Shown here: piece after piece, positions 2,899-60,200 of the stretch
How the letters are laid out: each line of letters starts with the position of its first letter
Numbering within the stretch: the stretch's first letter is position 1
IMG/VR virus record: IMGVR_UViG_3300037474_000073
Length of the DNA stretch: 64,000 nt
Reading direction: 5' to 3' (one strand)
From: a virus
Notes under the pieces: generated by a model
Told to the model about the DNA's origin: nothing
The model's input: only the letters and a program-made list of their open reading frames with translations
Database searches by the model: none
Program-made: the position numbers and the translations under genes

Positions 2899-3215
2899 TG
2901 GGTGCGCCGAAGAGCCTGCGGGAATTGCGCGAGGCGATTCCTGTTCGCCGCCGTTCGGCGAGCGGAATATTTGACGAATACGCCGCTCTCGTCTCCGTCA
3001 TTCCGCCTCGGATCAGAAAGGCACTCGTCGATCGCGGCGTCAGCCCGAGTCGGGCCGGCGTGCTGAGTAACGACATCGAGGCGGCACTCAAGGAGATCGT
3101 CCGCGGATACGACACCGTGAGCACGTTCCTCGGCGCGCTCGAGGGCGCGATCGACGAGGCACAGCACGCCGCCGTCACGGCCGGCACGTTCCAAGAGCAC
3201 TTCATCATCGACTAG
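2898..3215 (+). CDS. hypothetical protein (105 aa), paralog A
   Basis: ATG overlaps the previous stop (TGATG). Shares the RGVS..RA..LS..I pattern and the C-terminal F(I/V)ID with 3224-3538. Confidence 0.6.
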   Translation: MGAPKSLRELREAIPVRRRSASGIFDEYAALVSVIPPRIRKALVDRGVSPSRAGVLSNDIEAALKEIVRGYDTVSTFLGALEGAIDEAQHAAVTAGTFQEHFIID

Positions 3216-3223
3216 GGGCAGGC

Positions 3224-3538
3224 ATGGCGACAGTGAAGCTCAGCGACCTTAGGCAGGAAGCGGCCGACCGGCGTACGAACACGGTACGAGCGGCCGACCG
3301 CTACTCCCGTCTGCGCGTCCCCCTCGGTGCGGGTCTGCTGGATCTCCTGCGGGCACGTGGCGTCTCGGACGATCGGGCGCTGGAACTGTCCTCGGGGATT
3401 CAGGACCGGGTCGCTGAATTGGACCGTGTGTACTCTGAGGCAGCAAAGAACCTGGCCGCTCTGATCAGCTACCTTGATCGGGTGGAAACCGAACTACGCA
3501 AGGCGGGCCGGGACACCGAGAAGTTCGTCATCGACTAG
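3224..3538 (+). CDS. hypothetical protein (104 aa), paralog B
   Basis: Same length and motif pattern as 2898-3215. Ends ..EKFVID. Confidence 0.6.
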   Translation: MATVKLSDLRQEAADRRTNTVRAADRYSRLRVPLGAGLLDLLRARGVSDDRALELSSGIQDRVAELDRVYSEAAKNLAALISYLDRVETELRKAGRDTEKFVID

Positions 3539-3943
3539 GTGGGGGTCATGGGACGGATCAGCGGCGACGAGTGGCACTCGCTGGCACGGCGGGAGGCGGC
3601 GCGCGAGTTCGGGAAGCGCCATTACGGCTCGTACGTCGTCAGCCAGTTCGCGCCGCACATCGCGCTGATCGTGCTGGCCGGTGCGGCGGGATTCGGCGCC
3701 TGGTGGCTCTACTCGCGCATTCACGCCGCCCTGTCCCGCCCCTCCGTCACGACCGAGGTCGCACAGGTCCACTCGGGCGTGCCGGTCTGGATCTGGTTCA
3801 CCGGCGCCTTGCTCGCGGTCGGCACGGTCGTCGTCTACCGCCCCGGTCGCGTCCCGTCGATGCCGGGCGTCGCGATTGCGAAGGTCGCGATCGTGCTCGT
3901 GCTGTGGCTCGCCTGGGTCGGATTCCTGCTCGCTCAGATCTGA
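3539..3943 (+). CDS. membrane protein, about 3 TM helices
   Basis: GTG directly after the TAG of the previous gene (alternative ATG at 3548). Hydrophobic segments IALIVLAGAAGFGAWWLY, VWIWFTGALLAVGTVVVY and IVLVLWLAWVGFLLA. Confidence 0.6.
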   Translation: MGVMGRISGDEWHSLARREAAREFGKRHYGSYVVSQFAPHIALIVLAGAAGFGAWWLYSRIHAALSRPSVTTEVAQVHSGVPVWIWFTGALLAVGTVVVYRPGRVPSMPGVAIAKVAIVLVLWLAWVGFLLAQI

Positions 3944-4254: not shown

Positions 4255-4710
4255 ATGACTCAGAACGAGGTGACCGCGCGGTACGTGCCTGAAGTGCGCA
4301 CGATCGTCGGCACCGACCTGGAACTGACCCAGGCGCTACGGCGCCAGAGCGCACTCGGCCGGCTGCTCACGCCGCCCGGCGAAATCAAGCCGCGGCGCGT
4401 CGAGGACGGTCGCTGGGCGATCACGGTCCGGCTGGCCCGCCCGCTGACCGCGCAGGAGGTTCGCGACCTGACTCCGACGTGGTGGAAACGCCACCGCCGG
4501 CACGTCGGTTACGCCGCCCTCGCGCTCACCCTGCTCGCCGTCATCGGCGGCATCGTGACGCTGTTGATCAGCCTGTTCACCGCGGTCGCCGACAACGGCT
4601 CGTACCTGCTCGCTGGCGCGATCGGCCTCAGCGCCGTCTTGTTCGCCGCAGTGAAGAAAGGTCACCCCTGTACCGGTCTGCACTGCGCGGGATGCAAGGA
4701 CAAGCACTGA
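4255..4710 (+). CDS. membrane protein (151 aa), two TM helices, Cys-rich C-terminus
   Basis: Trimmed from track ORF 4123. ATG 4255 follows CCGAGAGAGGGAGACGAG. TM segments YAALALTLLAVIGGIVTLLISLF and LLAGAIGLSAVLFAAV. Ends CTGLHCAGCKDKH. Confidence 0.55.
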   Translation: MTQNEVTARYVPEVRTIVGTDLELTQALRRQSALGRLLTPPGEIKPRRVEDGRWAITVRLARPLTAQEVRDLTPTWWKRHRRHVGYAALALTLLAVIGGIVTLLISLFTAVADNGSYLLAGAIGLSAVLFAAVKKGHPCTGLHCAGCKDKH

Positions 4711-20357: not shown

Positions 20358-21284
20358 TTAGTCGTTGAGCGTGCCCATGCCGGTGATCTTGCAACCGGCG
20401 CCGGGCTCCTGGACGAACGGGACGACCGAGCGGCGAGCGCGCACCAGCCACTCGTCGTTACCCAGCGGGTTGCGCCGGGTCAGCGACTGGATGGCGTCGG
20501 CCGCGCCCTGGTACTCGGGGCTCGGGATGTTCTCGTACCCGAGGGCGCCGAGCGCGCTGGAGTCGCAGACGATCGCGGTTCCGGCGGTCGGCAGGTTCGG
20601 GGTCGGGAGGATCCGCAGACCGGCCAGGACCGGCAGGTCGCCGGACATGGAGACGGTCGTGCCGGCCTCGCGCGCCATCGTGGCGAGCATGTTGAGGTTG
20701 CCGACGATGTACGCGAACGCGAAGTCGTCGACCGCCACGACGTCGGGGTCGTAGCCCTTGTTGAGCGCCCGGATGGTCGCCTTGGCACGGAGCAGGTCCA
20801 GCAGCGGGTTGGCGCCCGCGCCGTCCCAGACGGCCGTCGCGGGGATGGACGCCGTCACGGCGCTCGTGATTACCGCGAGGGCGGTCGAGTCGACGGTCAG
20901 CACCAGGTAGTTGACGATCTTCTGGAGGTTCCGCTCGACGGCCTGACCGCGGAAGCGGCCGACCTCCTCGTCGGTGATCGGAACTTCCTGGCCCCACTTG
21001 ACCGGGTTGGCGACGGACGCCGTACCGGTCGGGGCGAGCGAACGCGGGTACTGGGCGCCGGGAGCGACGACCTCAGGGGCGTCGGAGGTGTAGATCGACT
21101 CGTCGGTCTCGTACAGGATCGAGGAACCCTCGATCCGGCCGGAGAGCAGTACGTCGGCGATGAACCGGTTCTCACCGATCGTCCGCAGCCGCCGGGAGAC
21201 GGCCGTCGGGTTGTTGAGGAACCGGGAGATCGTAAGCGTGTCGCCAGACAGCGACGGTGCAACGGGTGGGTACGTGATAGCCAT
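20358..21284 (-). CDS. major capsid protein
   Basis: 308 aa, directly after the scaffold and decoration-like genes. Size and position are typical of HK97-fold capsid proteins. Family judged by eye only. Confidence 0.8.
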   Translation of the reverse strand: MAITYPPVAPSLSGDTLTISRFLNNPTAVSRRLRTIGENRFIADVLLSGRIEGSSILYETDESIYTSDAPEVVAPGAQYPRSLAPTGTASVANPVKWGQEVPITDEEVGRFRGQAVERNLQKIVNYLVLTVDSTALAVITSAVTASIPATAVWDGAGANPLLDLLRAKATIRALNKGYDPDVVAVDDFAFAYIVGNLNMLATMAREAGTTVSMSGDLPVLAGLRILPTPNLPTAGTAIVCDSSALGALGYENIPSPEYQGAADAIQSLTRRNPLGNDEWLVRARRSVVPFVQEPGAGCKITGMGTLND

Positions 21285-24036: not shown

Positions 24037-25331
24037 GACGCGGGAACACGCTCGTTCGCGGGCGCGGGCACCGGTGCGGGCTGCGCGGCGGTCGGGGTCG
24101 GCTCGGGCGCGACCGCTGCCGGCCGTTGCGCGATCGTCGGCAACTGGTAGCGGTTACGCAGGTCGTTCTCCAGCGTGATGTCAGGCGTCAGCGCCCCGCA
24201 GGTCACGAGGGCGGCGATCGCGTCGCTGGTGACCTCGGGACGGGTGATGTCCGTACAGATGATTCCGGGGATCGGCTCCTCGCCGCCGGACCAGTTGATG
24301 TCGACCATCTGCATCGACAGGTTGTTCGCCGGCGTGGTGATCTCACCTGCGGTCGCCCGCCACGACAGCTCGAGCATGCCGATCAGCGTCTCGCCGAGCG
24401 CCCGCGACCCGTTGGCGCTGGCGTCGAGGTTGAACACGTTCGCCATGACCGACGCCGCGATCTGCGCGTCGAGGTAGCGAATGAACCCGAGGGTGTCCGG
24501 CACCGACCCGGAGAGCCCCTTCAGGTCGAACGTGTATCCGTCGGGCAGACCGACGCCGGACTGGTCGCCGACGCGGTATCCGCTGGCGAGTTCCTGCGCG
24601 CGGGTGATGTCGGCGGGCGGTGACCCGGCGGGCGCGGTCACCTGCGGGATGCCCATGCCGAACCGGCGCGATGAGGTAGCGAGCACCCGCCAAAGCTCGT
24701 GCTTGATAAGCCACGGCGCGTACGCGGGCCGGATCATCGACTGACCCTGCCAGGCGGCACCCTCCTTCTCGCGCACGTTCCAGAGCAGCCCCGACGCGGG
24801 CACGAGATCCTTGACGCCGCTCTGATAGACGCCCTTGAGCGATCCGTCGTCGTTGGTCACGATGTTCGTGATCGTCTGCGGCAGCCGCTCTGACAGCTCG
24901 GCGAGCCGGGCACGCAGCGGGTTGCCGATGATGTCGTACCGCATGGCGAACGGCGAGTGACCGAAGATCAGCATCAGGTTCACGGCGAGCCGCAGGTACT
25001 CGTCCCACTGCACGCCGCGGCGCCGGAACGGTCCGGGTCCGTCGTTGTCGCCGACGATCGGCAGCCCCCACGCGTCGGCGACCAGCTCGACGACCTCGTC
25101 CCGGCAGCCTTTCGGGTTGACCGCCCACGTTCCCGAGCGCAGCGGCAGACTGTACGACTTGACGACCGACGAGATTTGCGGGTCGTGCCTCATCTTGGCG
25201 AAGGTCTGGATCGACGTGGGGTAGGCGAGTGCGGGCACCGACTCGTAGAGATCGAGCGCGAGCGTGCCGTACCCGTATCCGCCGTCCTGCAGAGATCCGG
25301 CGAGGGTGCGCGGTGCGTCGGACAGTGCCAC
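24033..25331 (-). CDS. portal protein
   Basis: Trimmed from track start 25478 to the GTG after AAGGGGG. 432 aa. Position between the TerL region and the protease. Confidence 0.75.
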   Translation of the reverse strand: MALSDAPRTLAGSLQDGGYGYGTLALDLYESVPALAYPTSIQTFAKMRHDPQISSVVKSYSLPLRSGTWAVNPKGCRDEVVELVADAWGLPIVGDNDGPGPFRRRGVQWDEYLRLAVNLMLIFGHSPFAMRYDIIGNPLRARLAELSERLPQTITNIVTNDDGSLKGVYQSGVKDLVPASGLLWNVREKEGAAWQGQSMIRPAYAPWLIKHELWRVLATSSRRFGMGIPQVTAPAGSPPADITRAQELASGYRVGDQSGVGLPDGYTFDLKGLSGSVPDTLGFIRYLDAQIAASVMANVFNLDASANGSRALGETLIGMLELSWRATAGEITTPANNLSMQMVDINWSGGEEPIPGIICTDITRPEVTSDAIAALVTCGALTPDITLENDLRNRYQLPTIAQRPAAVAPEPTPTAAQPAPVPAPANERVPAS

Positions 25332-25354
25332 GGTGACCCCCTTACGATGCGGAT

Positions 25355-25750
25355 ATGGAGACGAGCGGAAACGACGACTACCCGCCGATGACCGCGCCGC
25401 CGTGGGGGCGGCACGATCACGACGTGATGGCGGACCTGATGCGCGCGGTACGGGTGCTCGGCATGGCACCGGCGCCACCGTTGCCCGACGTGCGGGCCGG
25501 CAGCGATCAGGTGTTCAGGGATCTCGCCAGCGAGTCGGGGATCCAGACCAGCACCGGCGGCGCGGAAACGCTCGCCATGCTCGGCATTCCGGTGCGGGTC
25601 ACGACCGAGCTACCCGAGAACGTGGTCATCATCGGCGACCGCGTGCTGATGCGCCGACAGCGTGGCGACTGGATCACGTTTCCGCTGAGCGTGCTGGATT
25701 ACGATGGCAATGCCACTGCTGAGCACGTGCGTGCATTCCGCGCACCGTAG
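25355..25750 (+). CDS. hypothetical protein (131 aa), antisense to the late operon
   Basis: Only plus-strand ORF inside the structural block with a protein-like translation (..GAETLAMLGIPVRVTTELPENVVIIGDRVLMRRQRGDWITFPL..). Start uncertain. Confidence 0.5.
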   Translation: METSGNDDYPPMTAPPWGRHDHDVMADLMRAVRVLGMAPAPPLPDVRAGSDQVFRDLASESGIQTSTGGAETLAMLGIPVRVTTELPENVVIIGDRVLMRRQRGDWITFPLSVLDYDGNATAEHVRAFRAP

Positions 25751-25769
25751 GACCTGGTGCCCCTACGCC

Positions 25770-25794
25770 GAACCCCCCGCATCGCGGGGGGTTC
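25770..25794. terminator. bidirectional stem-loop between convergent genes
   Basis: GAACCCCCCGC-atc-GCGGGGGGTTC, an 11-bp perfect stem, followed by TT on the plus strand. Confidence 0.6.
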
Positions 25795-25807
25795 TTGGCG
25801 TCCGGTG

Positions 25808-26752
25808 CTAGTAAGTGCCGCCGTAGCGGAACGAACGGAACACGGTCGGCGCGATCATGATCGCGTTGTAATGCGTGGGCACCGATGGGATGTTGAAGAT
25901 CGTCAACGCGGGCGTCACGCCGGCCGGCACGGTGTTGCCGAGCGTGAACGAGTACGACTTGGCGCCAGCGGTCGTCGAGCCGAGCACGCCGCTGCCCATC
26001 TTGGCTCCGATCGGAGCGGTATCGCTGGCCGCGACCTCACCGAACACCTGCACCTTCCCGGCCTGCGTATACGTCGGCGACGTCCACAGGCTGTTCTGGA
26101 ACGCACCGCAATAGTTGCCCTTATAAGACGTCCACCACGCACCACTGACGTACTGCACGCCGAAGAGCTGCGTTGTGGCGCTGCCGACGCTGACGTCGGC
26201 GTTGATGTCCAGTCCGTGCGGGCAGGTCGTTCCGACAGCCGGAACAAATCCTGTGCCGTAGCCATTGAAAACGCCGTTGGTCCAGCTCCCTGCGAACAGG
26301 TGCGGATTGCTGTTGCCGAACAGGGAAGAGTCGACGGTCCAGCCCCACTCGACGATCTGCTGCTCGTTGGCAGACTTGACCGCCAGTTCGAACAGCGAGT
26401 GATAGCAGAACTGCGTCGAGGTGCACGTCGGCTTCTCGACGGTCACTTGATCCGAGGCGCCGTCCGTGGAAACGGTCTGCTGACCGCCTCCGTAGAAGTA
26501 GCACGTGCCGCAGGGCGACTTGGCGGTCATGCCGACTCGCTGAACGGGCATGCCCTTGCGTACCGAGCCCTGCTTGCCGACCAACGCGTGCGCGTAGTCG
26601 AGCGCCGGCAGCGGCTTGCCGATCAGGTTGCTCGCGCTGACCGCCTGCGCGGGCGCCGCAGCGGCCGGCGTGCTGCTGATGCCGGCCGCGCCGGCGAGCA
26701 ACAACAGGAACGCCCCGAGCAGTGACACCGCCCGAGTCTTGATCGTAGTCAT
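25808..26752 (-). CDS. secreted neprosin-like (DUF239) putative glutamic peptidase
   Basis: Trimmed from track start 27364 to the ATG after GAAGGAGACGAG. Signal peptide MTTIKTRAVSLLGAFLLLLAGAAGISSTPAAAAPAQA. VEWGWTVDSSLFGNSNPHLFAGSWTNG..GTGFV...GAWWTSYKGNYCGAFQNSLW...VFGEVA parallels the neprosin pattern, including both Glu positions. Confidence 0.6.
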   Translation of the reverse strand: MTTIKTRAVSLLGAFLLLLAGAAGISSTPAAAAPAQAVSASNLIGKPLPALDYAHALVGKQGSVRKGMPVQRVGMTAKSPCGTCYFYGGGQQTVSTDGASDQVTVEKPTCTSTQFCYHSLFELAVKSANEQQIVEWGWTVDSSLFGNSNPHLFAGSWTNGVFNGYGTGFVPAVGTTCPHGLDINADVSVGSATTQLFGVQYVSGAWWTSYKGNYCGAFQNSLWTSPTYTQAGKVQVFGEVAASDTAPIGAKMGSGVLGSTTAGAKSYSFTLGNTVPAGVTPALTIFNIPSVPTHYNAIMIAPTVFRSFRYGGTY

Positions 26753-26768
26753 CTCGTCTCCTTCATCA

Positions 26769-28403
26769 TCACCAGTCGGCGCGTTCCAGGTCGGCGCCGC
26801 TGAGTAGTCCCGTGCTCGCGGTGTAGGCGAGATCGGCGTCCGTCGGTCGCCGGTTGACCGGCTCGGGCTTCTCGTGGCGCGGGGTCCAGTGCGCCGAGAC
26901 GATCCGGGCGGCGTACGAGAACGTATCCACCTGGTCGTCATGGGTCCACGACGGGAACCCGGCGATCTCGTCGCACCACTCGTCGAGCCAGTCGGCGACC
27001 GCCGGCCAGAACACCGTGTGGCTTGCGAGCCGCTGCGTCGCCGGCAACGCCCGCGTGACCTTGTCCTTGTCCGGCGTGAGCGGCTGGATCCGGATGCCCG
27101 CGGTCGTAGCGTCGATGACCAGCGTGGTCCCGATGAAGCCGCGCTCCACGTAGACGTCCGGCGCCGCCCACTTCGCGCACAGCGGGCGCAGCATGTCGGC
27201 GTGCGCCTGCTCGGCGATGCGCTTGCGCACCCGGTCGAGCAGGATGAGCCGGCCGTCCAGCGTGATCGCCCACACCGAGGCGACCGTGAAGTCGGCCGAG
27301 GTCTTCGTGCTCGACGCCAGGTCCATCGTGATGAACCGGCGCATGTCGCCGACGAACAGCGCATCGCCGTCCACCTGGATCCGCAGACCGGCGGTCGGGT
27401 CGTGGTGCGACCGGTCGTAGCCGATGACCGACCAGTACCGGAAGTCGGAGCGGGCGAACAGATTGCCCTCGGCCGCGACCGGCGTCTGCATGTAGATCGA
27501 GTTCCAGACGTACATGGAACGCTTGGTCTGCAGCTCGCGGTAGTAGCCCGGCCGGCGACCCTGAACGCTGATCAGCTCACCGTGCGGGTCGTACACCGAG
27601 GCGCCGTCGCCGCCACGCACGAGCGGCTGGGTCACGTCGCGCACCGCAGGGATCCGCAGCACCTTCCAGGTTCCCGGCTCACGCTCGAGCATCCGGCCGG
27701 CGAGGTCGTCGGTGTGCCAGCGGGTCATCATCAGCACGACCCGGCCGCGCGAGCTCATCCGCGTCGCGCCGACCGACTCCCACCAGTCCCACGCGCTCTC
27801 GCGGTAGGTCGGCGATTCCGCCTCGGCGCGGCCGCGCACGGGGTCGTCGATCACCATCAGGTCGATCCGCTCACCGGTCAGACCACCGCCGACGCCGACG
27901 GACACGACGCCACCGCCCTGCGTGGTCTCGTACGCGTCCACCGCCCGCGAGTCGGCCATCAGTTCGAGCCCGAGCTCGGGATGCGCCTCGATCATGCGTC
28001 GGATCCACTTGCCCCAGCGCTCGGCCTTGGTCGCCGAGTAGCTGACGATGCCGATGCGCAGGGTCGGGTCCTGGGCAAGCATCCAGAGCGGGAACCAGCA
28101 CGACGTACGGGTGCTCTTGCCCTCCTGCGGCGGGATGAACACCATCAGCCGACCGCGGTCCTGCTCGGCGTCCGCGAGGTCCACGAGAGCGGCGTCGATG
28201 GCCTGCAGCGCGGGGGTCTGCGTCGTCGAGGTCAGGTACGCCTGCGCGAGGGCGCCCGGCGTGGGGTACCGGGCGCGGAACTCACTCGCCGAGATCCTCC
28301 GGAGGTGGTCCCGTTTCGATCTCACCTCGGACAACTTGGCCTTCAACCGCACGAGCTCGTCGACTGATCTCGTCGTCAAGCTCTCGGATAGTGGCGTCGA
28401 CAT
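26769..28403 (-). CDS. terminase large subunit
   Basis: Walker A PPQEGKST, Walker B DLMVIDDP. 544 aa. Start uncertain because it overlaps the TerS-like ORF by 122 nt. Confidence 0.9.
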   Translation of the reverse strand: MSTPLSESLTTRSVDELVRLKAKLSEVRSKRDHLRRISASEFRARYPTPGALAQAYLTSTTQTPALQAIDAALVDLADAEQDRGRLMVFIPPQEGKSTRTSCWFPLWMLAQDPTLRIGIVSYSATKAERWGKWIRRMIEAHPELGLELMADSRAVDAYETTQGGGVVSVGVGGGLTGERIDLMVIDDPVRGRAEAESPTYRESAWDWWESVGATRMSSRGRVVLMMTRWHTDDLAGRMLEREPGTWKVLRIPAVRDVTQPLVRGGDGASVYDPHGELISVQGRRPGYYRELQTKRSMYVWNSIYMQTPVAAEGNLFARSDFRYWSVIGYDRSHHDPTAGLRIQVDGDALFVGDMRRFITMDLASSTKTSADFTVASVWAITLDGRLILLDRVRKRIAEQAHADMLRPLCAKWAAPDVYVERGFIGTTLVIDATTAGIRIQPLTPDKDKVTRALPATQRLASHTVFWPAVADWLDEWCDEIAGFPSWTHDDQVDTFSYAARIVSAHWTPRHEKPEPVNRRPTDADLAYTASTGLLSGADLERADW

Positions 28404-28806
28404 CGCTCTCCCCGATCTGGATCCGAGTCGGAGCGTTCGCGCCGGTCAGTCGGCTGATGGAGTCGATGATCAGGCGGCACTCGGTGACCGCCTTGATGTC
28501 GCCGTCCATCGCCCGCTGCCATAGCGCCTTCAGCAACGCCTGCAGCCGGTCGAGGGACTCGGCACGGTAGTAGACCGTCTCGTGCCGCAGGTCGGCGATC
28601 GCGTCCTGCATGGCGCGGTGAACTGCCATCCCGACGGCCTGGCGGCTCGGCCACACCCGCTTGCCGTTCTCGTCGACCTGGGTCAACCAGATCTCTTCGT
28701 ACGTCATGCCCGAGCGCTTGCGGATCAGTGCCTCGCGGGTGCGCTCGGCGCGCATCTCCGTCGACGCCTTCTGCTGATGCGGCGGGATGTTCCCGGTCAT
28801 CGTCAC
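28282..28806 (-). CDS. terminase small subunit (putative)
   Basis: 174 aa directly upstream of TerL. N-terminal HTH-like region (GMTYEEIWL), a coiled region and an acidic tail. GTG start. Confidence 0.55.
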   Translation of the reverse strand: MTMTGNIPPHQQKASTEMRAERTREALIRKRSGMTYEEIWLTQVDENGKRVWPSRQAVGMAVHRAMQDAIADLRHETVYYRAESLDRLQALLKALWQRAMDGDIKAVTECRLIIDSISRLTGANAPTRIQIGESDVDATIRELDDEISRRARAVEGQVVRGEIETGPPPEDLGE

Positions 28807-29072
28807 GGCGCCTCACCTGATTCCGGGCACGGTGAAGTTGTCGGCATAGTATGCGCCGCCTGATCACTTCGGCAACTGACCGCCCCTGATCTCACCCAGT
28901 CAGCATGCACCCGCATCACCTCTTCGGCCGAATAGACCGGCGCGGGCTTGCCGCCGGCCGCCGTCATCCGGTGCCCGATAACAGGCGAGCCCGCCAATCT
29001 GCGCTGCAACGTCCGGCGCGGGATCGGCGGGCTCAACCATGAGAGCGCCTCGGTGATGGTCAATCCGGTCAA
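28803..29072 (-). CDS. helix-turn-helix DNA-binding protein (excisionase/MerR-like)
   Basis: Trimmed to the TTG that overlaps the upstream stop (TTGA). LTITEALSWLSPPIPRRTLQRRL..KPAPVYSAEEV. Confidence 0.45.
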   Translation of the reverse strand: MTGLTITEALSWLSPPIPRRTLQRRLAGSPVIGHRMTAAGGKPAPVYSAEEVMRVHADWVRSGAVSCRSDQAAHTMPTTSPCPESGEAP

Positions 29073-30049
29073 CGTGCCTGGCGGGGGTAGCGGGCCGACT
29101 TGAACCCCGAGTGGTGCTGCTCGCGCAGCATCTCGGCAGCCGCGTAGTCGTACGCCTCGGACCAGGCGGCGTCGTACTCGGGCAGCCACGCCTCACCAGC
29201 GAGGTCGTGCAAGGTGCCGAACAGTACCGCCTTGACGGCGGCGTACTCCTCGAGCGTCGCGCCACGGGTGACGCCCTCGCTCGGGCGCCAGAATGCGGCG
29301 TGCGCACGACCCATCGCCTGCAGCGCGGTGTCGAGTGGTTCAAGGCTGTCGGGGTTGTCGGGGTCGTACATCGTGGCGAGCGCCTTGAGCGCGCCATACA
29401 GCTTGTCGCGCTGCTTGAGACCGCGAGAGTCGGGGTCACCGAGCGGGTCGCGAGGGGCGAGCAGGTCGGACGGGAAGATCTCGGCGAGATTCGGCGCCGC
29501 GTCCAGCAGCCGCGAGTAGAACGTCAGGATCGCCGTGTCGCCGGTCTCACCGTCGAGCAGGGCGATCGACTCGCGGAGCAGGTCGCTGGTCGTCATGACG
29601 TAGCCCTTCCCTCGGCACGCCGGGCACGGCGGGCGCAACGCCTGGATCTCCGACGCCCGCATCCTGGTCAGCGTGTCGTCGAGCGGGACGTCGACCGGAT
29701 CGTCGACCGACGTATCCGTCGCCCGTTCCCCCTCGATCCTGCCCGCGCCCGCGTAACCGTCGCCGGTCTGAGGTCGGTCGTCGGCCGTGTCCGGCAGGTA
29801 CCGGCCGACGTTCTGCGTACGGTCCGCATCGCTCTGCGCGGGTGGTGCGCTGATCGGCTGTTCTGGTTGCACTGCTTGCTCCCCTGCTACTCGTCTCCGG
29901 AACATGATGAACTTCCCTACCTCGGCCAGGACCCGCCCGAGCATGACCATGCCGGCCAGTCCCCCGACGACGATCAATATCAAGGTGACCATAGACCACG
30001 GGTTACTGCGGATCGGGTCGTTGAACAGGTGATACAGCCAGTCCCTCAT
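29069..30049 (-). CDS. membrane-anchored globin-domain protein
   Basis: N-terminal TM segment WSMVTLILIVVGGLAGMVMLG, then a linker with CPACRGKG. The C-terminal 150 aa or so align by eye to 3-on-3 globins (FY B10, IF CD1, QRD E7, GRAHAAF F8 His, W..AY..AA). Confidence 0.6.
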   Translation of the reverse strand: MRDWLYHLFNDPIRSNPWSMVTLILIVVGGLAGMVMLGRVLAEVGKFIMFRRRVAGEQAVQPEQPISAPPAQSDADRTQNVGRYLPDTADDRPQTGDGYAGAGRIEGERATDTSVDDPVDVPLDDTLTRMRASEIQALRPPCPACRGKGYVMTTSDLLRESIALLDGETGDTAILTFYSRLLDAAPNLAEIFPSDLLAPRDPLGDPDSRGLKQRDKLYGALKALATMYDPDNPDSLEPLDTALQAMGRAHAAFWRPSEGVTRGATLEEYAAVKAVLFGTLHDLAGEAWLPEYDAAWSEAYDYAAAEMLREQHHSGFKSARYPRQAR

Positions 30050-33646: not shown

Positions 33647-33856
33647 TCAGACTTCGCTGACCTCCGTGGTCTCCCAGATCATCACCGAGGCGTCTCGGCG
33701 AATGATCGTTCCTGTCTTCTGAACTACAGGGTGACCCATGACCATGAAGGTTTCGCTGCCCTGGAATATGTCCGTGACCTTGATGGCGCGACGTTTCTTG
33801 GCATAGCAGTCTTTGACTCGGATCGTCATCCCGATCTTGATCTCATCTCGCGTCAT
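33647..33856 (-). CDS. low-GC small protein (69 aa), leaderless
   Basis: Trimmed to the ATG at 33856, 6 nt after the -10 TACAGT. About 52% GC by eye, against about 66% for the window. Lys/Ile-rich: MTRDEIKIGMTIRVKDCYAKKRRAIKV... Confidence 0.55.
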   Translation of the reverse strand: MTRDEIKIGMTIRVKDCYAKKRRAIKVTDIFQGSETFMVMGHPVVQKTGTIIRRDASVMIWETTEVSEV

Positions 33857-33862
33857 ACTCAG

Positions 33863-33900
33863 ACTGTACCCCCACCCCACCGACCGCGCAAGGAGCTTGC
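33863..33900 (-). promoter_or_regulatory. conserved promoter/operator module
   Basis: Minus strand: palindrome GCAAGCTCCTTGC (33888-33900) containing the -35 TTGCGC, a 17-bp spacer, then GTGGGGGTACAGT (33863-33875) with the -10 TACAGT. Confidence 0.6.
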
Positions 33901-33947
33901 GGGATCCACATCGTACGATGGCAATTCAACCGATCAGGGGGGCGATC

Positions 33948-34520
33948 ATGACGAACAGCACGAAGCAAGATCAGACGGTCATCCGAGATCATCCGGCAGT
34001 CGGACTCGGGCTGATGCGCCACATGTGGGAGATGTACGCCGAGACGTTCGAGGGGATCAACGCGCTCGCCGTCCAGCGGCACATGATGACCTACGCCGAG
34101 TTCGCTGCGGTCTGCATGGACGACCGGATCCACAAGTACGTGGCCACCGACGCGGCCGGCGTCCAGGGCATGTCGCTGCTGACCAACGACCTGAACGCGT
34201 GGCCGCTGATCAGCCCCGCCTACTTCGAGAGGCACTGGCCGACGCACTACGCGGCGAAGAGCGTCTGGTACGTCGGATTCGTCGCGGTCGCCGAGGGCGC
34301 ACCACATCACCTGTTCCCCGAGCTGATCGCCGCGATGTACGAGCCGGTCAAGGCGAGCAAGGGTGTCGCGGTCATGGATTTCTGCTCGTACAACGTCGCG
34401 AGTCGCAGGCTGCCGGACGTGACGACCCGGATCCTGCGCCGCCTGAACGCCTCGGCGGTCGGCGCCCCGATCGACGCGCAAGAGTTCTGGCTCTGGGAGT
34501 TCCCCGACCTGAACGTCTGA
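33948..34520 (+). CDS. hypothetical protein (190 aa), possibly GNAT-like fold
   Basis: Trimmed to the ATG after AGGGGGG. Opposite orientation to the flanking genes. The segment ..SVWYVGFVAVAEG.. is weakly GNAT-like; function not established. Confidence 0.5.
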   Translation: MTNSTKQDQTVIRDHPAVGLGLMRHMWEMYAETFEGINALAVQRHMMTYAEFAAVCMDDRIHKYVATDAAGVQGMSLLTNDLNAWPLISPAYFERHWPTHYAAKSVWYVGFVAVAEGAPHHLFPELIAAMYEPVKASKGVAVMDFCSYNVASRRLPDVTTRILRRLNASAVGAPIDAQEFWLWEFPDLNV

Positions 34521-49836: not shown

Positions 49837-51018
49837 TCAGCTCAGTACAACCATCGGCATGATCGCGTGTTGCCAGTTCGGGTCGTTGGGGCTGGTCAGT
49901 ACGATCGGCCGGCGGGTGAACTCTCCGACCTCGAAGCGCACCTCCACCTTGTCGCCGGGCACCGACCCGAGTGCCTCGGCCAGCCATTGCGGGTTGGTCG
50001 CGATCGAGCCGGACTCGCCGGTGTAGTCCACGTCGACCTGCTCGTTGCCGTCCTGGTCGAGATCCTTCTCGCTGGACGCGATGGTCAGCGTGCCGTCGGT
50101 GAACCGCAGCTTGACCGGTCCCTCCTTGCCCCGTACGATCGCCGCCCGCTTGAGCGGCATCGCCACCTCGGCGGGCTCGAGCACCGCCAGTCCGGCGTAG
50201 TTCTGTGCCTGGGCGAAGTTGCCGTCGAGGTGGATCGCCGGCCAGCCGTTCGGACCCGGATCGCCGAGGCGCATGACCAGCGACCGCGCGGGCGAGGTCA
50301 GCGAGATCCCGCCGTCGTGCAGCCCGATCGTGATTCGGCCGGGTCCGGTGAACGACGCGGCGGCGTCGATGAGGTTCGTTCCGTACGGGGTCGCCGACCG
50401 GCCGTATGCCGCGCCCTCGGCGTCGGGCGTCCACGGCAGCACGGTCTTGGCGACCCGGTACCGGTCGGTCGCGTAGACGGTGAGGTTGCTGTCGCCGGTC
50501 TCGTCGCCGAACCCGAGGAACATCTGCCGGAACACGGTCGTGTTATCGGGGTCTTTCAGGTTGGCGACGCCGACCCGTGCGATCGCGGCGGCGAATTGGT
50601 CGCCGTCGACCGATCCGATGGACGGCAGTTCGGCGGTCAGGCCGGGCCAGTCGTCCTCGCTGAACGTCGGCATCGTGCCGACCCAGCGCCCGACGGTGAG
50701 CATCAGGTGCCCGTTGCCGGCGGTGCCGATGCGCACGACCTGGTTGCCGCGGAACGTCGCGGCGAGCTCGCCGAGCAGGCGCCCGGACACGATCGCGATG
50801 CCGGCCGGCGTGTCGGTCAGGTTCTCCTCGGTGAGCACGGTCGCCCGCGCGGTCGCGTTCTCGTTGTACGTGGTGACGGTCAGCTTGCCGTCGCCGACCT
50901 CGAGCGCGACGCCGAGCCCAATCGGTGCCGCCGGCCGTGCCCCGATCCACTTGACCGCCCACGCCACGGCGGCCGCGAACGGCGCCGCCTTGACGGTGAC
51001 CTCTCCGGTGATCGTCAT
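49837..51018 (-). CDS. dnaN: DNA polymerase III beta sliding clamp
   Basis: Trimmed from track start 51192 to the ATG that overlaps the upstream stop (ATGA). Contains ATDRYRVA, NPQWLAEAL and a C-terminal AIMPMV. 393 aa. Confidence 0.85.
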   Translation of the reverse strand: MTITGEVTVKAAPFAAAVAWAVKWIGARPAAPIGLGVALEVGDGKLTVTTYNENATARATVLTEENLTDTPAGIAIVSGRLLGELAATFRGNQVVRIGTAGNGHLMLTVGRWVGTMPTFSEDDWPGLTAELPSIGSVDGDQFAAAIARVGVANLKDPDNTTVFRQMFLGFGDETGDSNLTVYATDRYRVAKTVLPWTPDAEGAAYGRSATPYGTNLIDAAASFTGPGRITIGLHDGGISLTSPARSLVMRLGDPGPNGWPAIHLDGNFAQAQNYAGLAVLEPAEVAMPLKRAAIVRGKEGPVKLRFTDGTLTIASSEKDLDQDGNEQVDVDYTGESGSIATNPQWLAEALGSVPGDKVEVRFEVGEFTRRPIVLTSPNDPNWQHAIMPMVVLS

Positions 51019-52694
51019 TCCTTTTCTCCACTCTCTCGGTTTTTCTCGCACTCGGCGACGCCGAGCATGACCCATTCGAAGACCGGCACGGCGATCGAGT
51101 TGCCGAGCTGCCGGTACCGCGCCGAGTCGGCCTGCGGTTTGCCGTTGCTGGTCGCCGTCCACCCGTCCGGATATCCCTGCAACCGTTCGCACTCCACCGG
51201 CGTCAGCCGCCGGACCGCCGAGGGCGAAGCGATCGCCCCGCCACTGGTGTTGTGTCCCGAGCGCACCGTGTTCGCCAGTTCGCGTGCTCGCGGTCCGACC
51301 CCATCGGTGTGCCCGAACGCGACCGGCTGGACGATCCGCAGTCCATGGTCGCCCCGCTCGCCCTCCTCGGCGGTGATGGTCGGCGCGGTGTCTGTCGGCG
51401 TGACGGTGATCCCGTCCTGGTTGCCGAGTGCCCGCTCCTTGTCGACGATGAAGTTCGTGTTGTGCCCCTGCCCGACCCCGCCGAGGTCGGCGCGCAGCGC
51501 GTACGCGATGAACGCCTCCTCGTCGGGGTGGTTGCGCTGAACGTGGGACATGAGCGCGGGTGAATTATCTCCGATCACCAGATTTGCCGAATCGCCCGCG
51601 TCGTATCGGTCCGCGCCCTTTCCTGCAGTCAAGGAATATGCAACCTCGGGTGCGATCGCGATGGCATGCGCGCCAGTCGTGTCCAGAGTGAACATCGCTC
51701 CGTCGTCATCGCCGTAGCCCGGTCCCGCTGGTCCAGCCGTGTCGCTACGCCCGATGATCGTGTTCTGCATGGGAAAGACGTGGTTCGCGAGTACGTCGGA
51801 AGCATCAACACCCGCCCGTCCGCCACCCATCCATGAGGTGAGCGCGCCGGCAAGGATCTGCCCGCCGGCCGCCGACTCGGCGTCGTACGGGGTACGGGCG
51901 TTGGTCTCGGACAGCGGCGAGATCACTTCTCCCGGTCCGCCAGCGAGCGCAACGCTGCGTGCAAGGACGCGGGCAGTTCGCGCTCGCGCCGCTTCGCCCG
52001 CCGCAGGATCCCCGTCGCGGCCTTGGGGCTCAAGCAGTACCTGAGCAGGTGCGGCCCAGTCTCGAGAATTCGCGACAATGACGACGCGGCGGCGCCGCTG
52101 GGGGACTCCGAAGTGCTGAGCGTCCAGCACTCGGTAGGCGTACCCATACCCGCGGTCTGCCAGTTCCCCGAGGACGGCACCCATTGCACCCCCGTGGATC
52201 TCGACGCACCGGCCGGGGCCACAGGCTCCTCCCCGAACAGAGTGAGGATCGGTGCAACCGTTTCCGCAGGCTCCGTTGCCTGGGCAGGGGCAGACCGACG
52301 ACAGGAGACCAGGGACGTTTTCCAGGACGACCCACCGACACCGAACACCGGTGAGCTCGAGAATCTCGTCGAGGATCCGCACGATCTCGAAATAGAGTCC
52401 CGAACGTGCGCCGTCCAGGCCCATGCGACGTCCCGCCAGGCTGAGATCCTGGCATGGGAAACCGGCTGTGATGATTCCGTTTCGGGGATCAAACCCGGCT
52501 GCGAGTAGGTCGGCACCGGTCACCTTCCTGATGTCGTCGAACATGGTCATGTCGGGGAAGTGATCGGCTGCCACGCCGGCCGCCGCCTTGTCGATCTCAA
52601 CGGCTGCCACGGTGCGGAACCCGACCCGTGCCAGTGCCAGCGGGAACCCGCTGATCCCGTCGAACATCGAGACGGCGGTCAGTTGGCTGTCCAT
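51015..52694 (-). CDS. DNA (cytosine-5)-methyltransferase
   Basis: Motif I FDGISGF, motif IV GFPCQDLS, motif VI ENVPGLL, motif X QLGNSIAVPV. Very long variable region (559 aa in total). Confidence 0.95.
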   Translation of the reverse strand: MDSQLTAVSMFDGISGFPLALARVGFRTVAAVEIDKAAAGVAADHFPDMTMFDDIRKVTGADLLAAGFDPRNGIITAGFPCQDLSLAGRRMGLDGARSGLYFEIVRILDEILELTGVRCRWVVLENVPGLLSSVCPCPGNGACGNGCTDPHSVRGGACGPGRCVEIHGGAMGAVLGELADRGYGYAYRVLDAQHFGVPQRRRRVVIVANSRDWAAPAQVLLEPQGRDGDPAAGEAARARTARVLARSVALAGGPGEVISPLSETNARTPYDAESAAGGQILAGALTSWMGGGRAGVDASDVLANHVFPMQNTIIGRSDTAGPAGPGYGDDDGAMFTLDTTGAHAIAIAPEVAYSLTAGKGADRYDAGDSANLVIGDNSPALMSHVQRNHPDEEAFIAYALRADLGGVGQGHNTNFIVDKERALGNQDGITVTPTDTAPTITAEEGERGDHGLRIVQPVAFGHTDGVGPRARELANTVRSGHNTSGGAIASPSAVRRLTPVECERLQGYPDGWTATSNGKPQADSARYRQLGNSIAVPVFEWVMLGVAECEKNRESGEKE

Positions 52695-54301
52695 CAGAAC
52701 TCCAACACGGGCTGGATGCCCTTGCTGAGCCGCTTGACGATCAGCGGCAGGTGTCCGGGGTCAAGCTCGATCAGCGTGACGCGGAACCCCTCGACGATGC
52801 ACGCTTCGCCGGTCGTTCCGGATCCGGCGAACGGGTCGAGCACCATCCCGCCGGGCGGCGTGACCAGCTTGACCAGCCACCGCATCAGGTCGACGGGCTT
52901 CACGGTCGGGTGCGCGACGACGCCCTCGGATCCATCGCGCGCGATCCACTGCGGCTCGGGGCACACGCACGGCGACCCGGATACGTCGGTCCACCCGCAC
53001 AGAGCGCACCGGTTTCCGGTCACACCCGCACTCGCGCCGCGCCCGATCCGCGGCCGCTCCGACGCGGGCGCCTTGGCCTCATACCGGAACGTCGGGAAGA
53101 ACCGTGATGCCCCGCCGCTGTCGTACTTGATGGCGATTCCGTCGTTAGTCCCAGCTGCGCCTTCGCCAAACCCGATCCCGCTTCGCCGAGCCGGTCGGAT
53201 CCCGCCCTCGATGTATCCGCTCTGCGCGTCCAGCTCGGCGATCGGGCATCCCGGCACACACCTGTCGGCGCACAGATCCTCGCCGTCCGGCGTCGCCGCG
53301 TGCGACAGCACGACGTTGCTCGGCCACCGACCGAGACCGGCGACCGGCACCGACGAGCGGCCGTTCAGCCCGTGACCGTAGGCGGACACCGACTCGGGTG
53401 CATGGCTATCGAATCCAGGATCGCGCGTGCCGCCGGTGTTCCCGACCCGGCACCCGTCGATGTTGAGCGCGCCCGTGCCGTACGCCTGCACGTTGCCGGC
53501 GACGGTGCCCGCCAGCGGCTTGCGCGCAACGACGATCGGTTCCGACGCCGGTTTGAGCGCGGTACCCCAGCCGGCCCACCGCTTTGCGGCGTCGGTGGCG
53601 GGGGCGGTTACGTCGAGGTAGCCGTTCGCTGCGCCGTTAGTCATCGTCGGAAGCATCCGGCCTGTAGTTGCCGTGTTTGCGTAACCCGGCTGCCCTAGCT
53701 TCGTGTCGACCACCTCACGCGTTGCGCCCGCCGCCTTGTCGATGGCCTTGCTGACGTCCAGCGACTTCGGGAAGCCCGAGCCGTACATCCAAGTGATCGT
53801 GTCGCGGATCTCGAACCCGGCATCCTCGATCCCACAGGTCAGCCGATGCCAGGTACGGGTACCGCCGAAGGCGAGCAGGTGCCCGCCAGGCTTGAGAACA
53901 CGCCAGCATTCACGTGCCCAGTCCTCGGTCCATGCTTGAAAGGCGCGGAGTCGGGGGCCGCGCTCATCAGTGAAATCGGGATTCGCGCATCGGCACGGCG
54001 ACCCGCCGCGCTGCGAGTGACCACAGGACTTGCATCGAGGGTTCACTCCGCCAAGGAAGGTGGGAGCCTCGATTCGGCGCGCTCCATCGGAATAGCCAGC
54101 GGCGCTCATCCCCGCTGTTGCGTTAGATCTAGCTTCGCCGCGCCCGAATGTGTCCCACTCGCGACCCATGAACTCGAGCCCATATGGAGGGTCACACACA
54201 ACGGCGTCGATGGAAGCCTCAGCCATAGCACGCAGGACCTCGAGCGAGTCTCCGTGGAACAGCAGCATGTTGTCGCCGTCACGCCAGTACGGCTCAGTCA
54301 T
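52694..54301 (-). CDS. DNA amino-methyltransferase (N6-adenine or N4-cytosine, beta-class order)
   Basis: DPPY near the N-terminus and DPFAGSGTT near the C-terminus. 535 aa with Cys-rich insertions. Confidence 0.9.
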   Translation of the reverse strand: MTEPYWRDGDNMLLFHGDSLEVLRAMAEASIDAVVCDPPYGLEFMGREWDTFGRGEARSNATAGMSAAGYSDGARRIEAPTFLGGVNPRCKSCGHSQRGGSPCRCANPDFTDERGPRLRAFQAWTEDWARECWRVLKPGGHLLAFGGTRTWHRLTCGIEDAGFEIRDTITWMYGSGFPKSLDVSKAIDKAAGATREVVDTKLGQPGYANTATTGRMLPTMTNGAANGYLDVTAPATDAAKRWAGWGTALKPASEPIVVARKPLAGTVAGNVQAYGTGALNIDGCRVGNTGGTRDPGFDSHAPESVSAYGHGLNGRSSVPVAGLGRWPSNVVLSHAATPDGEDLCADRCVPGCPIAELDAQSGYIEGGIRPARRSGIGFGEGAAGTNDGIAIKYDSGGASRFFPTFRYEAKAPASERPRIGRGASAGVTGNRCALCGWTDVSGSPCVCPEPQWIARDGSEGVVAHPTVKPVDLMRWLVKLVTPPGGMVLDPFAGSGTTGEACIVEGFRVTLIELDPGHLPLIVKRLSKGIQPVLEF

Positions 54302-54756
54302 GACTCGACCCGCATCAGCCGCTCGGCGATCTCGTGCTGCAAGAACGTCTTGAAGTCGGGATAGACCTCGATGTCAGGGTGACAGTGGAACACGTGCTCG
54401 CGCGGTCCGACGACGATCAGGCGCATCGGGGCGTCACTGAGCGAAGCCCGGAAATCAGCGTGCATCAAGGCGACGCCGTGCTCGACGTGTCGACCGCCAC
54501 GACCGCCCTGCCCGGTGAACGACACGATCGCGTCTGCGGTACCGAGGTCGGAGATGTCCCGAGCGCCGTGCGCCCAGACCTCGGCGGGATGCGCCGCGAT
54601 GTAGTCGGACGTAAAGCTGTTGTCGAGTCCGGGTGTGACCTCGCGGTGCCAGGACGACACGACCTCACCGCAGCCCGCCGCCTCGAGTACGTCGGCGTTC
54701 TGCGTCATCTCGGCGTGGCGCAGGTATGCGCTCGCGAAGTAGTAGCGGTTGCGCAT
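54298..54756 (-). CDS. nucleoside 2-deoxyribosyltransferase / DNPH1-like protein (putative)
   Basis: Trimmed to the ATG that overlaps the upstream stop (TGATG). RYYFASAY ... GGRGGRHVEHGVAL resembles the family's Rossmann-like core. Weak call. Confidence 0.4.
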   Translation of the reverse strand: MRNRYYFASAYLRHAEMTQNADVLEAAGCGEVVSSWHREVTPGLDNSFTSDYIAAHPAEVWAHGARDISDLGTADAIVSFTGQGGRGGRHVEHGVALMHADFRASLSDAPMRLIVVGPREHVFHCHPDIEVYPDFKTFLQHEIAERLMRVES

Positions 54757-54950
54757 CACGCGGCCGTCTCGACCGGCAGGCTGAGCCGCTCGCTGGTCTG
54801 CTCGTCGGTCTCTTCGAGCAGGAGGTCGAGCATCGCGGTCAGGTACGTCGACCGGTCGATGCCGAGCCGGTCGCACTTCTCGGCCGCCTTCTGCCAGCGG
54901 TCGGTGGGATAGCGCCAGTTCTGTTTGGGCGTGCCCCTGGTCGTAGCCAT
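54756..54950 (-). CDS. ribbon-helix-helix (CopG/Arc-like) DNA-binding protein
   Basis: Trimmed to the ATG after GAGAGAGGTGACCAC. 64 aa. WRYPTDRWQKAAEKCDRLGIDRSTYLTAMLDLLL fits a strand-helix-helix pattern. Confidence 0.5.
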   Translation of the reverse strand: MATTRGTPKQNWRYPTDRWQKAAEKCDRLGIDRSTYLTAMLDLLLEETDEQTSERLSLPVETAA

Positions 54951-54973
54951 GTGGTCACCTCTCTCATGCAATG

Positions 54974-55007
54974 GATGTACCCCCACTATAGCGCGCTGTA
55001 CCCCCAC
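54974..55007 (-). promoter_or_regulatory. tandem GTGGGGGTACA boxes upstream of the RHH gene
   Basis: Minus strand: GTGGGGGTACAGC (54995-55007) and GTGGGGGTACATC (54974-54986), 21 bp apart. No GCAAG-N3-CTTGC palindrome nearby. Confidence 0.5.
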
Positions 55008-55014
55008 ACGACAA

Positions 55015-55043
55015 CAGCCCCCGACCGTGAAGATCGGGGGCTG
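55015..55043 (-). terminator. stem-loop terminating the 59440-55057 operon
   Basis: CAGCCCCCGA-9 nt-TCGGGGGCTG, followed by TTGT on the minus strand. Confidence 0.6.
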
Positions 55044-55056
55044 TCGTGCGAATTGG

Positions 55057-55341
55057 TCAGGCGGTGCGGGCGTCGCGCTCAGGGTCGCGTGGGTCGTACT
55101 GCGTACAGCGCCGGTTCAGCGAGTTCTCGCCCCACTCGGCCGGCGTCTGCTCACTGATCAGGGCGAGGTCGGCGAGCGGGCAGTAGACTTCGGCCTCCTC
55201 GTCCGCGTGCCGACAGGTCCCGCACCAGCGTGCCGACCACATGTCCCACTCGGTGCCGTTACTGAACGCCCGACCGTCCAGCGACGCAGCCTCGAGCCGA
55301 TCGAGATCGACGATCAGCGGAACCGTACCGCGGTCAGACAT
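55057..55341 (-). CDS. hypothetical Cys-containing protein (94 aa)
   Basis: Contains WCGTCRH...C. Confidence 0.55.
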   Translation of the reverse strand: MSDRGTVPLIVDLDRLEAASLDGRAFSNGTEWDMWSARWCGTCRHADEEAEVYCPLADLALISEQTPAEWGENSLNRRCTQYDPRDPERDARTA

Positions 55342-56636: not shown

Positions 56637-56654
56637 GATTCCTTCTCTCTCGGA

Positions 56655-59553: not shown

Positions 59554-59559
59554 GAGGAC

Positions 59560-60194: not shown

Positions 60195-60200
60195 AGGGGC

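Follow-up and report, generated by a model that had tools for sequence, protein, structure and literature searches.

This analysis concerns the interval between the genes for the large terminase subunit (TerL) and the portal protein in a 64,000-nt stretch of DNA (hereafter the window) from the IMG/VR virus record IMGVR_UViG_3300037474_000073; about 3.5 kb of the 67.5-kb contig lie outside the window. TerL and portal genes are usually adjacent, as an original prediction for this DNA had pointed out, and they are so in the related loci L100-L102 and L106, with only 10 bp between them in L102 and its twins and in L106 (L102 4978-4989). In the window, where the late genes of this part run on the minus strand, they are separated by the 1.4 kb that the prediction had named, measured here as 1,437 bp (25332-26768), and the features described for this interval were all recovered in place or within 1 nt (Table 1). 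Two open reading frames (ORFs) and a hairpin lie inside. The first ORF, a neprosin-family gene for a 314-aa protein (hereafter the peptidase gene), follows TerL on the same strand, with its ATG 16 nt past the TerL stop codon and a GAAGGAG motif 7 nt upstream of the ATG; the second (hereafter the antisense gene) runs on the opposite strand and encodes 131 aa. Both ORFs show a coding-type pattern of G+C content at the three codon positions (GC1/2/3; 0.70/0.49/0.84 for the antisense ORF), and both are under purifying selection relative to their homologues, with ratios of nonsynonymous to synonymous substitution (dN/dS) of 0.22-0.33 (peptidase) and 0.31-0.37 (antisense). Neither protein had a match in PHROGs, NCBIfam or PADLOC.

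The 314-aa protein is a member of the neprosin/DUF239 family, bearing out the likeness that had been read from its core motifs. Its match to the Pfam profile PF03080 (Neprosin) had an E-value of 9.4e-16 and 58.3 bits (cut-off 22) and covered profile positions 5-213 of 214. A single-sequence phmmer search against PDB returned noise only; a profile built from 22 homologues matched the neprosin chains 9qr8, 7zu8 and 7zvb in PDB with E-values of 4e-15 to 5e-13. The AlphaFold2 model, built on the homologue alignment (predicted local distance difference test score (pLDDT) 78.9, predicted template modelling score (pTM) 0.77), has an all-beta core at residues 84-314, and a Foldseek search of PDB ranked the five neprosin entries first (E 3.7e-11 to 2.2e-10), with template modelling (TM) scores of 0.69-0.72 when normalised to the mature enzyme. 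All other Foldseek matches had E-values of 4.5e-5 or worse, the next being GH16 glucanases and the G1 scytalidoglutamic peptidase. We take the neprosin family to be MEROPS G3. Neprosin is still given as U74 in PMC9343461.

Mutation of E188 and E297 abolishes the activity of neprosin (PMC9343461). When residues were counted along the profile alignment, E188 (IEAGW) paired with E135 (VEWGW) and E297 (GGEIY) with E239 (FGEVA), and E135 and E239 are glutamate in all 110 homologues of the combined phage and actinobacterial alignment; the proposal that both positions of the catalytic glutamate dyad are held was thus upheld. Among the subsite and second-shell residues, taken as those implicated in neprosin by mutagenesis or modelling (PMC9343461), conservation is partial. 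Y136 (Y87, in 109 of 110 homologues), L171 (L120), F206 (F153), Y220 (Y165) and the G-E motif are kept. Q173 is replaced by E122 (109/110) and F169 by H118 (110/110), and W175, H134, Y214, Q192, Y194 and E293 are replaced by A124, Y85, V161, T139, D141 and Q235, respectively, so that Y136 is the only one retained of H134, Y136, Q173, W175, Y214, F169, Q192, Y194 and E293. In the alignment, Glu122 and His118 mark the actinobacterial and phage branch. These changes bear on specificity and not on family membership. The catalytic class, a glutamic peptidase, can be inferred from the alignment, while neither post-proline specificity nor an optimum at acidic pH can be taken for granted, because the subsite residues of neprosin are replaced.

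The same observations bear on whether the protein could have the neprosin fold and yet not be a protease, serving instead as an exported binder or attacking something other than protein, for example cell-wall glycan. Paired glutamates are also used by the concanavalin/GH16 jelly roll, to which the fold is similar, and Foldseek also returned GH16 glucanases and galectins (E 4.5e-5 to 1e-3); in addition, several neprosin subsite residues are replaced, a third glutamate (E122) and His118 are invariant, and the literature searched holds no assayed prokaryotic member. However, the neprosin matches are better by six orders of magnitude and their TM scores of 0.69-0.72 compare with 0.36-0.47 for GH16, the PF03080 homology is significant, no glycosidase family was matched by the 314-aa protein in the Pfam scan, and the invariant residues are the very ones that align with the peptidase dyad. 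We consider a non-proteolytic function quite improbable; the protein most likely works as an exported glutamic endopeptidase, as its family, dyad and predicted export suggest.

The strong signal peptide that had been noticed is supported by hydropathy and by conservation within the clade of phage homologues. Residues 1-36 comprise a basic n-region (K5, R7), a hydrophobic core of about 18 residues (mean Kyte-Doolittle hydropathy up to 2.05 over residues 10-24) and an A-x-A site, ending in AAA or AQA; the same layout is common to all 13 phage-clade homologues, which end in AQA, VQA or AHA. No lipobox cysteine and no twin arginine occur in residues 1-36 of the window protein, and this segment looks like a Sec signal peptide that would be cleaved after A33 or A36. 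The following residues 37-79 are basic (6 K/R versus 1 D/E), compared with a core of isoelectric point (pI) 5.7. They hold the sequence N-L-I-G-K46-P-L-P-A-L-D-Y-A-H, followed by a basic linker. The corresponding motif N-L-[IL]-G-K46-P-L-P-x-L-D-Y-A-H is found only in the phage clade, where all 14 members have K46 and P47, and is lacking in the cellular relatives. Residues 41-60 were modelled confidently by AlphaFold (pLDDT 89 and 76) between disordered stretches. The Neprosin_AP pro-domain (PF14365) was found neither in the window protein nor in the precomputed domains of its homologues. Pro-neprosin has a basic linker and a lysine, K118, that serves as a latency plug (PMC9343461), and by analogy with these the 43-aa extension may be a short pro-peptide. 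The six cysteines (81, 84, 110, 116, 177 and 215) are specific to the phage clade and fit an extracellular protein stabilised by disulfides.

Compared with neprosin itself, the glutamic prolyl endopeptidase of Nepenthes x ventrata (PDB 7ZU8, 7ZVA-C, 9QR8), the window protein shares the two-sheet beta-sandwich, both catalytic glutamates, an N-terminal segment ahead of the catalytic domain, and secretion and disulfides (both predicted for the window protein). It differs in that the two are only about 20% identical, the cysteine pattern is another one, the 43-aa basic extension stands in place of an all-beta Neprosin_AP pro-domain of about 100 aa, and a phage, not a plant, carries the gene. The nearest cellular relatives are chromosomal PF03080 proteins of Actinoplanes and other Micromonosporaceae, which have the same catalytic domain with H118, E122, E135 and E239; unlike the phage protein, they measure about 350-390 aa, begin with a signal that by eye looks twin-arginine-like (SRRGLLAAGL), have some 130 aa of pro-region, and show neither the K46-P47 / D-Y-A-H motif nor the six cysteines that typify the phage clade. 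These chromosomal Actinoplanes-type genes (L018-L097, e.g. L024 5809-6885) form a conserved set, for which no functional study was found. More remote are the eqolisins (MEROPS G1; scytalidoglutamic peptidase, PDB 2IFR and 2IFW; Foldseek ranks 9 and 13), with a related beta-sandwich and an equivalent catalytic glutamate (PMC9343461); they differ in a Gln-Glu rather than Glu-Glu dyad, in a weaker structural match (E 1e-4, TM 0.59-0.64, target-normalised) and in giving no sequence-level match.

Comparison with close relatives showed how the peptidase gene came to its place. In four related contigs (L005-L008), with TerL 87% and portal 82-84% identical to those of the window, the antisense gene lies between TerL and portal, and tblastn detected no remnant of the peptidase gene. 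In all four, the TerL stop leads straight into the hairpin, the antisense gene or both. The DNA alignment shows that in L005 and L006 the hairpin of the window (ACGCCAAGGACCCCCGG...) adjoins the TerL stop codon, with the antisense gene ending just beyond it; the conserved columns cease at window position 25800 and restart at 26769. The peptidase gene is therefore a precise single-gene cassette of 967 bp, a Shine-Dalgarno sequence plus an ORF, inserted between the TerL stop and a pre-existing hairpin, and the synteny check agrees with the proposal that it was acquired. The hairpin and the antisense gene are older than the insertion, because they are present in relatives without the peptidase gene; the 1.4-kb accessory island of the original prediction is thus not one unit, the antisense gene being present without the peptidase gene in four relatives and the hairpin in two. 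Composition is too weak alone as evidence of foreign origin: the peptidase gene has a G+C content of 0.647, a third-position value (GC3) of 0.86 and a codon adaptation index-like score of 0.64 versus 0.69, 0.90-0.93 and 0.73-0.78 in the flanks, and several other genes of the phage are similar to it. Three in-frame TGA codons stand in tandem at the end of TerL (26763-26771, minus strand; TGATGATGA), the first being its stop and the run extending into the Shine-Dalgarno motif of the cassette; the relatives have a single TAA or TGA.

The occurrence of homologues points in the same direction. A large protein collection held 12 homologues with 54-85% identity and lengths of 305-326 aa, plus a 13th at 42%, all metagenomic, and those on long contigs sit in phage-like contexts. 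Nine further, more distant relatives (27-39% identity) were found in IMG/VR. Neither tblastn of the peptidase (threshold 1e-3) nor megablast of the 4.5-kb region found a match in 50,697 GenBank phage records, consistent with the original prediction, whose author knew of no described phage example; likewise, no paper was found on a bacterial or phage member of the family, the neprosin/DUF239 literature retrieved concerning plants only. Among representative genomes of 185,579 species, 162 loci matched, and the best 80 of these belong almost all to Actinoplanes and other Micromonosporaceae, with 32-41% identity over the catalytic domain only (residues 85-312). No close chromosomal copy was present among these species representatives, the best being 41% identical. 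Two plasmid records of Streptantibioticus cattleyicolor matched at 35% identity.

The location of the homologues with 54-85% identity varies between the other phage contigs, and the peptidase gene is therefore mobile among mosaic phages. In L098, which shares tail genes with the window, the homologue lies where the early and tail arms meet; in the P0005 contig it stands among early genes, in L099 it is a lone opposite-strand gene in the replication region, and in L002 it is located upstream of the terminase region. Within the fetched flanks, filtered tblastx showed that L001-L003 share nothing but the peptidase gene with the window, and at the DNA level L001 is 91% identical in the mature coding part alone. 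The homologues in L002, L003 and L098 are followed by a hairpin, and the upstream regions in the other phages are longer. In the neighbourhoods examined, the homologues are not linked to lysis genes. Upstream of the L099 homologue, at about 4595-4674, a tandem direct repeat (CCTAACATGCTGC x2) was observed, which could be an operator or promoter element.

The hairpin that follows the peptidase gene has the 11-bp perfect stem that had been described, with a 3-nt loop (25794-25770) and a bulged 5-bp extension (to 25801-25765). Its RNA folds at -37.8 kcal/mol on the minus strand and -41.8 kcal/mol on the plus strand (z about -4.6), and none of 200 shuffled sequences folded as well. Lying between the convergent peptidase and antisense genes, it is likely a bidirectional terminator. 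A scan of 24800-29200 found no sigma-70-type consensus promoter, a scan of limited value for actinobacteria. Because only 16 nt separate the TerL stop from the peptidase ATG, there is no room for a promoter of its own, and the peptidase gene would most simply be translated as part of a TerS-TerL transcript that stops at the hairpin. Late transcripts had been expected to cross a terminator and an antisense gene on their way to the portal gene. Both do lie between TerL and portal; however, the interruption of TerL-to-portal transcription by hairpin and antisense gene is a property of the lineage, and not an effect of the insertion. The portal gene either has its own promoter or depends on read-through.

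These features also bear on the idea of a lysogenic-conversion moron, in which the peptidase would be expressed from the prophage and secreted to the benefit of the host, in nutrition, competition or surface remodelling. Morons and late-operon accessory slots are known, for example, from lambda (bor and lom) and HK97. Like them, the peptidase gene is an extra gene between genes that are adjacent in relatives, is not needed for the virion, has a composition slightly off that of its flanks (as several other genes of the phage do) and has a predicted exported product, as is typical of conversion genes; it is followed by a hairpin, as in L002, L003 and L098, it is mobile among phages, and its homologue in L099, as a lone opposite-strand gene, must have a promoter of its own. 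Unlike them, it has no promoter of its own within the 16 nt behind TerL, where no consensus promoter was seen, and its terminator is borrowed, given that the hairpin in L005 and L006 pre-dates the gene. Prophage expression is not indicated: no integrase or recognisable repressor occurs among the roughly 45 window ORFs scanned (about 3.5 kb of the contig being outside the window), and no close copy exists in the cellular genomes of the 185,579 species representatives. The term moron, used in the original prediction, does not apply in the strict sense, and expression from a prophage is unlikely, while deserving consideration.

The antisense gene had been described as ending 23 bp from the portal start; the distance is correct, and the ORF starts there rather than ends, so that the two genes are divergent. 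Its product is acidic (pI 4.9) and has no signal peptide in its sequence. Homologues are 59-70% identical, and the three looked up lie on the four contigs L005-L008; the family is tiny, with 9 clusters among 1.8 billion representatives. P0032 (1,878 aa), at first sight another homologue, was discarded as a repeat artefact. None of 10 family members had a Pfam match even at E = 10. For the window protein, there was no match in PHROGs, NCBIfam or PADLOC, no sequence match in PDB and no significant Foldseek match in PDB or BFVD. In the 23-bp spacer towards the portal gene, GTGACCCCCTTACGAT is invariant in the five genomes (the window and L005-L008). TACGAT (25343-25348, plus strand) lies 6 nt before the antisense ATG and is a candidate -10 box for a leaderless antisense transcript; its conservation could equally reflect the ribosome-binding site of the portal gene.

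The original prediction had asked whether the antisense gene encodes an inhibitor or immunity protein that is paired with the protease. The two genes are indeed adjacent and convergent and share one hairpin. However, L005-L008 have the antisense gene but no peptidase gene, and no antisense homologue lies close to the peptidase homologues of L001-L003, L098, L099 and the P0005 contig; furthermore, without a signal peptide the 131-aa protein would not meet an exported enzyme. A protease-inhibitor module in which this protein neutralises the peptidase is contradicted by the distribution of the two genes and is highly improbable. The TerL-portal slot contained the antisense gene before the peptidase gene arrived, and the two are independent rather than partners.

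The predicted structure of the antisense protein and profile comparison point weakly to capsid proteins. Its AlphaFold2 model (pLDDT 72) is a small alpha/beta fold, whose weak structural matches include several capsid proteins of the HK97 fold. In an hhalign comparison, the antisense family matched the family of the phage's own major capsid protein (20358-21284, minus strand) with a score of 32.3 and an E-value of 4e-4 over 77 collinear columns, family positions 28-104 aligning with capsid residues 153-236. A reversed profile scored 13.6, an unrelated family 10.8, and 70 block-shuffled nulls at most 19.8; the capsid protein was the top match of the antisense family among 35 window proteins and their reversed copies, and a profile of six cultured-phage capsids alone gave the same register with a score of 22.4. 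The profile of the capsid family had no sequence match in PDB that would place the matching region on a domain of the HK97 fold. The antisense protein may resemble a fragment of the capsid protein; the chances that the similarity reflects real homology seem roughly balanced, and we regard it as a lead rather than as established.

More distant relatives show that the junction is not filled in the same way throughout the lineage. Portal relatives were located in metagenome contigs at 9 loci. Besides those with TerL and portal adjacent, L105 and L111 have a gap of about 290 bp (L105 2621-2917), which in L105 holds an unrelated 98-aa antisense ORF starting 21 bp from the portal gene; the 75-kb contig L114 contains, at 2986-3721, two unrelated antisense genes (125 and 108 aa); and L103, L104 and L109 have a 1.7-kb gap with other ORFs (L104 3256-4869). 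The start of an opposite-strand gene about 20 bp from the portal start recurs in the window, L005-L008 and L105. The TerL-portal junction is thus a hypervariable accessory slot, in which relatives hold zero, one or two unrelated small opposite-strand genes. One of the ORFs in the 1.7-kb gap of L104 (3563-3886, plus strand; 107 aa) shares a GIPVRxDxxMP motif with the antisense family (hhalign E 3e-4, over 21 columns only).

Taken together, the peptidase gene was probably acquired as a single cassette that encodes an exported glutamic endopeptidase, is expressed with the packaging genes and has no antisense partner. A cassette of Shine-Dalgarno sequence and ORF would have entered between the TerL stop and the standing hairpin, the peptidase would be translated from the TerS-TerL late transcript, and late in infection the enzyme would cross the membrane of the infected cell. 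Since close relatives lack the gene, virion production can do without the peptidase, whose targets are therefore probably proteins of the envelope or outside the cell, either of the host or of neighbouring cells. Candidate roles would be release or spread through a proteinaceous surface layer, or destruction of a protein receptor, and the gene neighbourhoods favour neither.

Several points weigh against this account. A promoter may lie within the 3' part of TerL, and the homologues of other phages occupy early regions or, in L099, stand by themselves on the opposite strand; for both reasons, late timing would be specific to this genome, and the timing of expression may differ between phages. 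No integrase was found among the window ORFs scanned, about 3.5 kb of the contig lying outside the window. The peptidase activity is extrapolated from a plant enzyme of about 20% identity, and several functionally important residues of that enzyme (Q173, W175, H134, Y214 and F169) are replaced. Finally, the characterised glutamic peptidases act at acidic pH, and the envelope of an actinomycete is not obviously such a milieu.

A more far-reaching synthesis can be drawn up, although we regard it as rather unlikely in its full form. The phage protein would represent a compact, disulfide-braced type of peptidase without a pro-domain, in which the K46 motif would plug Glu135/Glu239 as a miniature zymogen and His118 and Glu122 would shift activity towards near-neutral pH. 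Late export would let it cut a host surface protein, for receptor destruction or spread. The antisense protein would mimic the central region of the capsid protein, as a decoy or dominant-negative against capsid assembly of a competing phage or against capsid sensing by the host, and an abundant actinophage lineage, with genomes of about 65-75 kb, would reserve the TerL-portal junction for conflict genes.

Judged by its sequences, the known family has a new carrier here, a distinct phage clade with its own N-terminal architecture. The clade consists of small homologues (about 25-29 kDa when mature) that bear predicted signal peptides and occur in phages probably of high-GC actinobacteria, and it is linked to the large set of uncharacterised Actinoplanes relatives. 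Neprosin is under development as an oral enzyme against coeliac disease. For enzymology, the clade offers natural second-shell variants (Glu and His for Gln and Phe) with a minimal N-terminal extension, which could serve to probe what keeps glutamic peptidases latent and what sets their pH range. For phage biology, it provides a base-pair-resolved case of a gene cassette placed in the hypervariable slot between terminase and portal, and raises the question why a phage should export a protease while packaging its DNA.

Table 1. Features in and around the TerL-portal interval of the window.
Feature	Position	Strand	Basis or remark
TerL (large terminase subunit)	28403-26769	-	Terminase_6N/6C; PHROG 38, 8.6e-88
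TerL stop codon TGA	26771-26769	-	upstream boundary of insertion
Inserted segment, 967 bp (16-nt spacer, peptidase ORF and 6 nt past the stop)	25802-26768	-	missing from L005-L008
Spacer TGATGAAGGAGACGAG from TerL stop to peptidase ATG, with GAAGGAG ribosome-binding site inside	26753-26768	-	sequence reading
Neprosin-family gene, 314 aa, predicted Sec-exported glutamic peptidase	26752-25808	-	PF03080; Foldseek; dN/dS
Predicted signal peptide MTTIKTRAVSLLGAFLLLLAGAAGISSTPAAAAPAQA, codons 1-36	26645-26752	-	hydropathy; homologue layout
Basic N-terminal extension, codons 37-79, candidate short pro-peptide	26516-26644	-	clade motif; model
Neprosin-like beta-sandwich catalytic domain, codons 80-314	25811-26515	-	profile, AlphaFold2 model, alignment
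Glu122 codon, in place of neprosin Q173	26387-26389	-	profile alignment
Glu135 codon (VEWGW), counterpart of neprosin E188	26348-26350	-	profile alignment to 7zu8
Glu239 codon (FGEVA), counterpart of neprosin E297	26036-26038	-	profile alignment
GC-rich hairpin without U-tract, 11-bp perfect stem (25770-25794) plus 5-bp extension	25765-25801	.	RNA folding
Antisense gene, 131-aa acidic protein, predicted cytoplasmic	25355-25750	+	homologues in TerL-portal slot of L005-L008
Divergent spacer between portal and antisense genes, 23 bp	25332-25354	.	portal Shine-Dalgarno AAGGGGG on - strand; TACGAT on + strand
Portal, 432 aa, GTG start	25331-24033	-	Portal_Mu 8.8e-34; PHROG 113

The capsid protein also places the phage. 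It has 947 homologues, and more than 90 clusters are 78-94% identical to it, many on contigs of 64-75 kb; because of these numbers, the lineage appears to be abundant and uncultured. The nearest capsids of cultured phages are those of Gordonia, Mycobacterium and Arthrobacter phages, at 52% identity or less, with Gordonia phages closest at 52%, and the phage is probably one of a high-GC actinobacterium.

Elsewhere in the window, the gene just upstream of TerS (29069-30049, minus strand) encodes a 326-aa protein with a predicted N-terminal transmembrane helix and a C-terminal globin-like domain, matching a haemoglobin-like flavoprotein in PDB (4e-6), the NCBIfam flavohaemoprotein (1.6e-5) and Pfam Globin (3e-3). 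An orthologue with an unmarked PF00042 match occurs in L114, and the protein is conserved in L007 (59% identity); a membrane-anchored phage globin, if the prediction holds, would be unusual. A lone opposite-strand gene of 235 aa without a family match (33813-34520, plus strand) lies within the minus-strand early region. Plus-strand gene blocks occupy both window ends (35-2011 and 59500-63895), convergent with or divergent from the long minus-strand block, and the low-end block begins with a 658-aa FtsK/SpoIIIE-like protein (PHROG 24831, 4.7e-30). The early region at 49837-58977 (minus strand) encodes a homologue of the DNA polymerase III beta-clamp (49837-51192), an N6/N4 DNA methylase (52694-54301), an ERF recombinase, an RNase T-like exonuclease and a YqaJ-like exonuclease.

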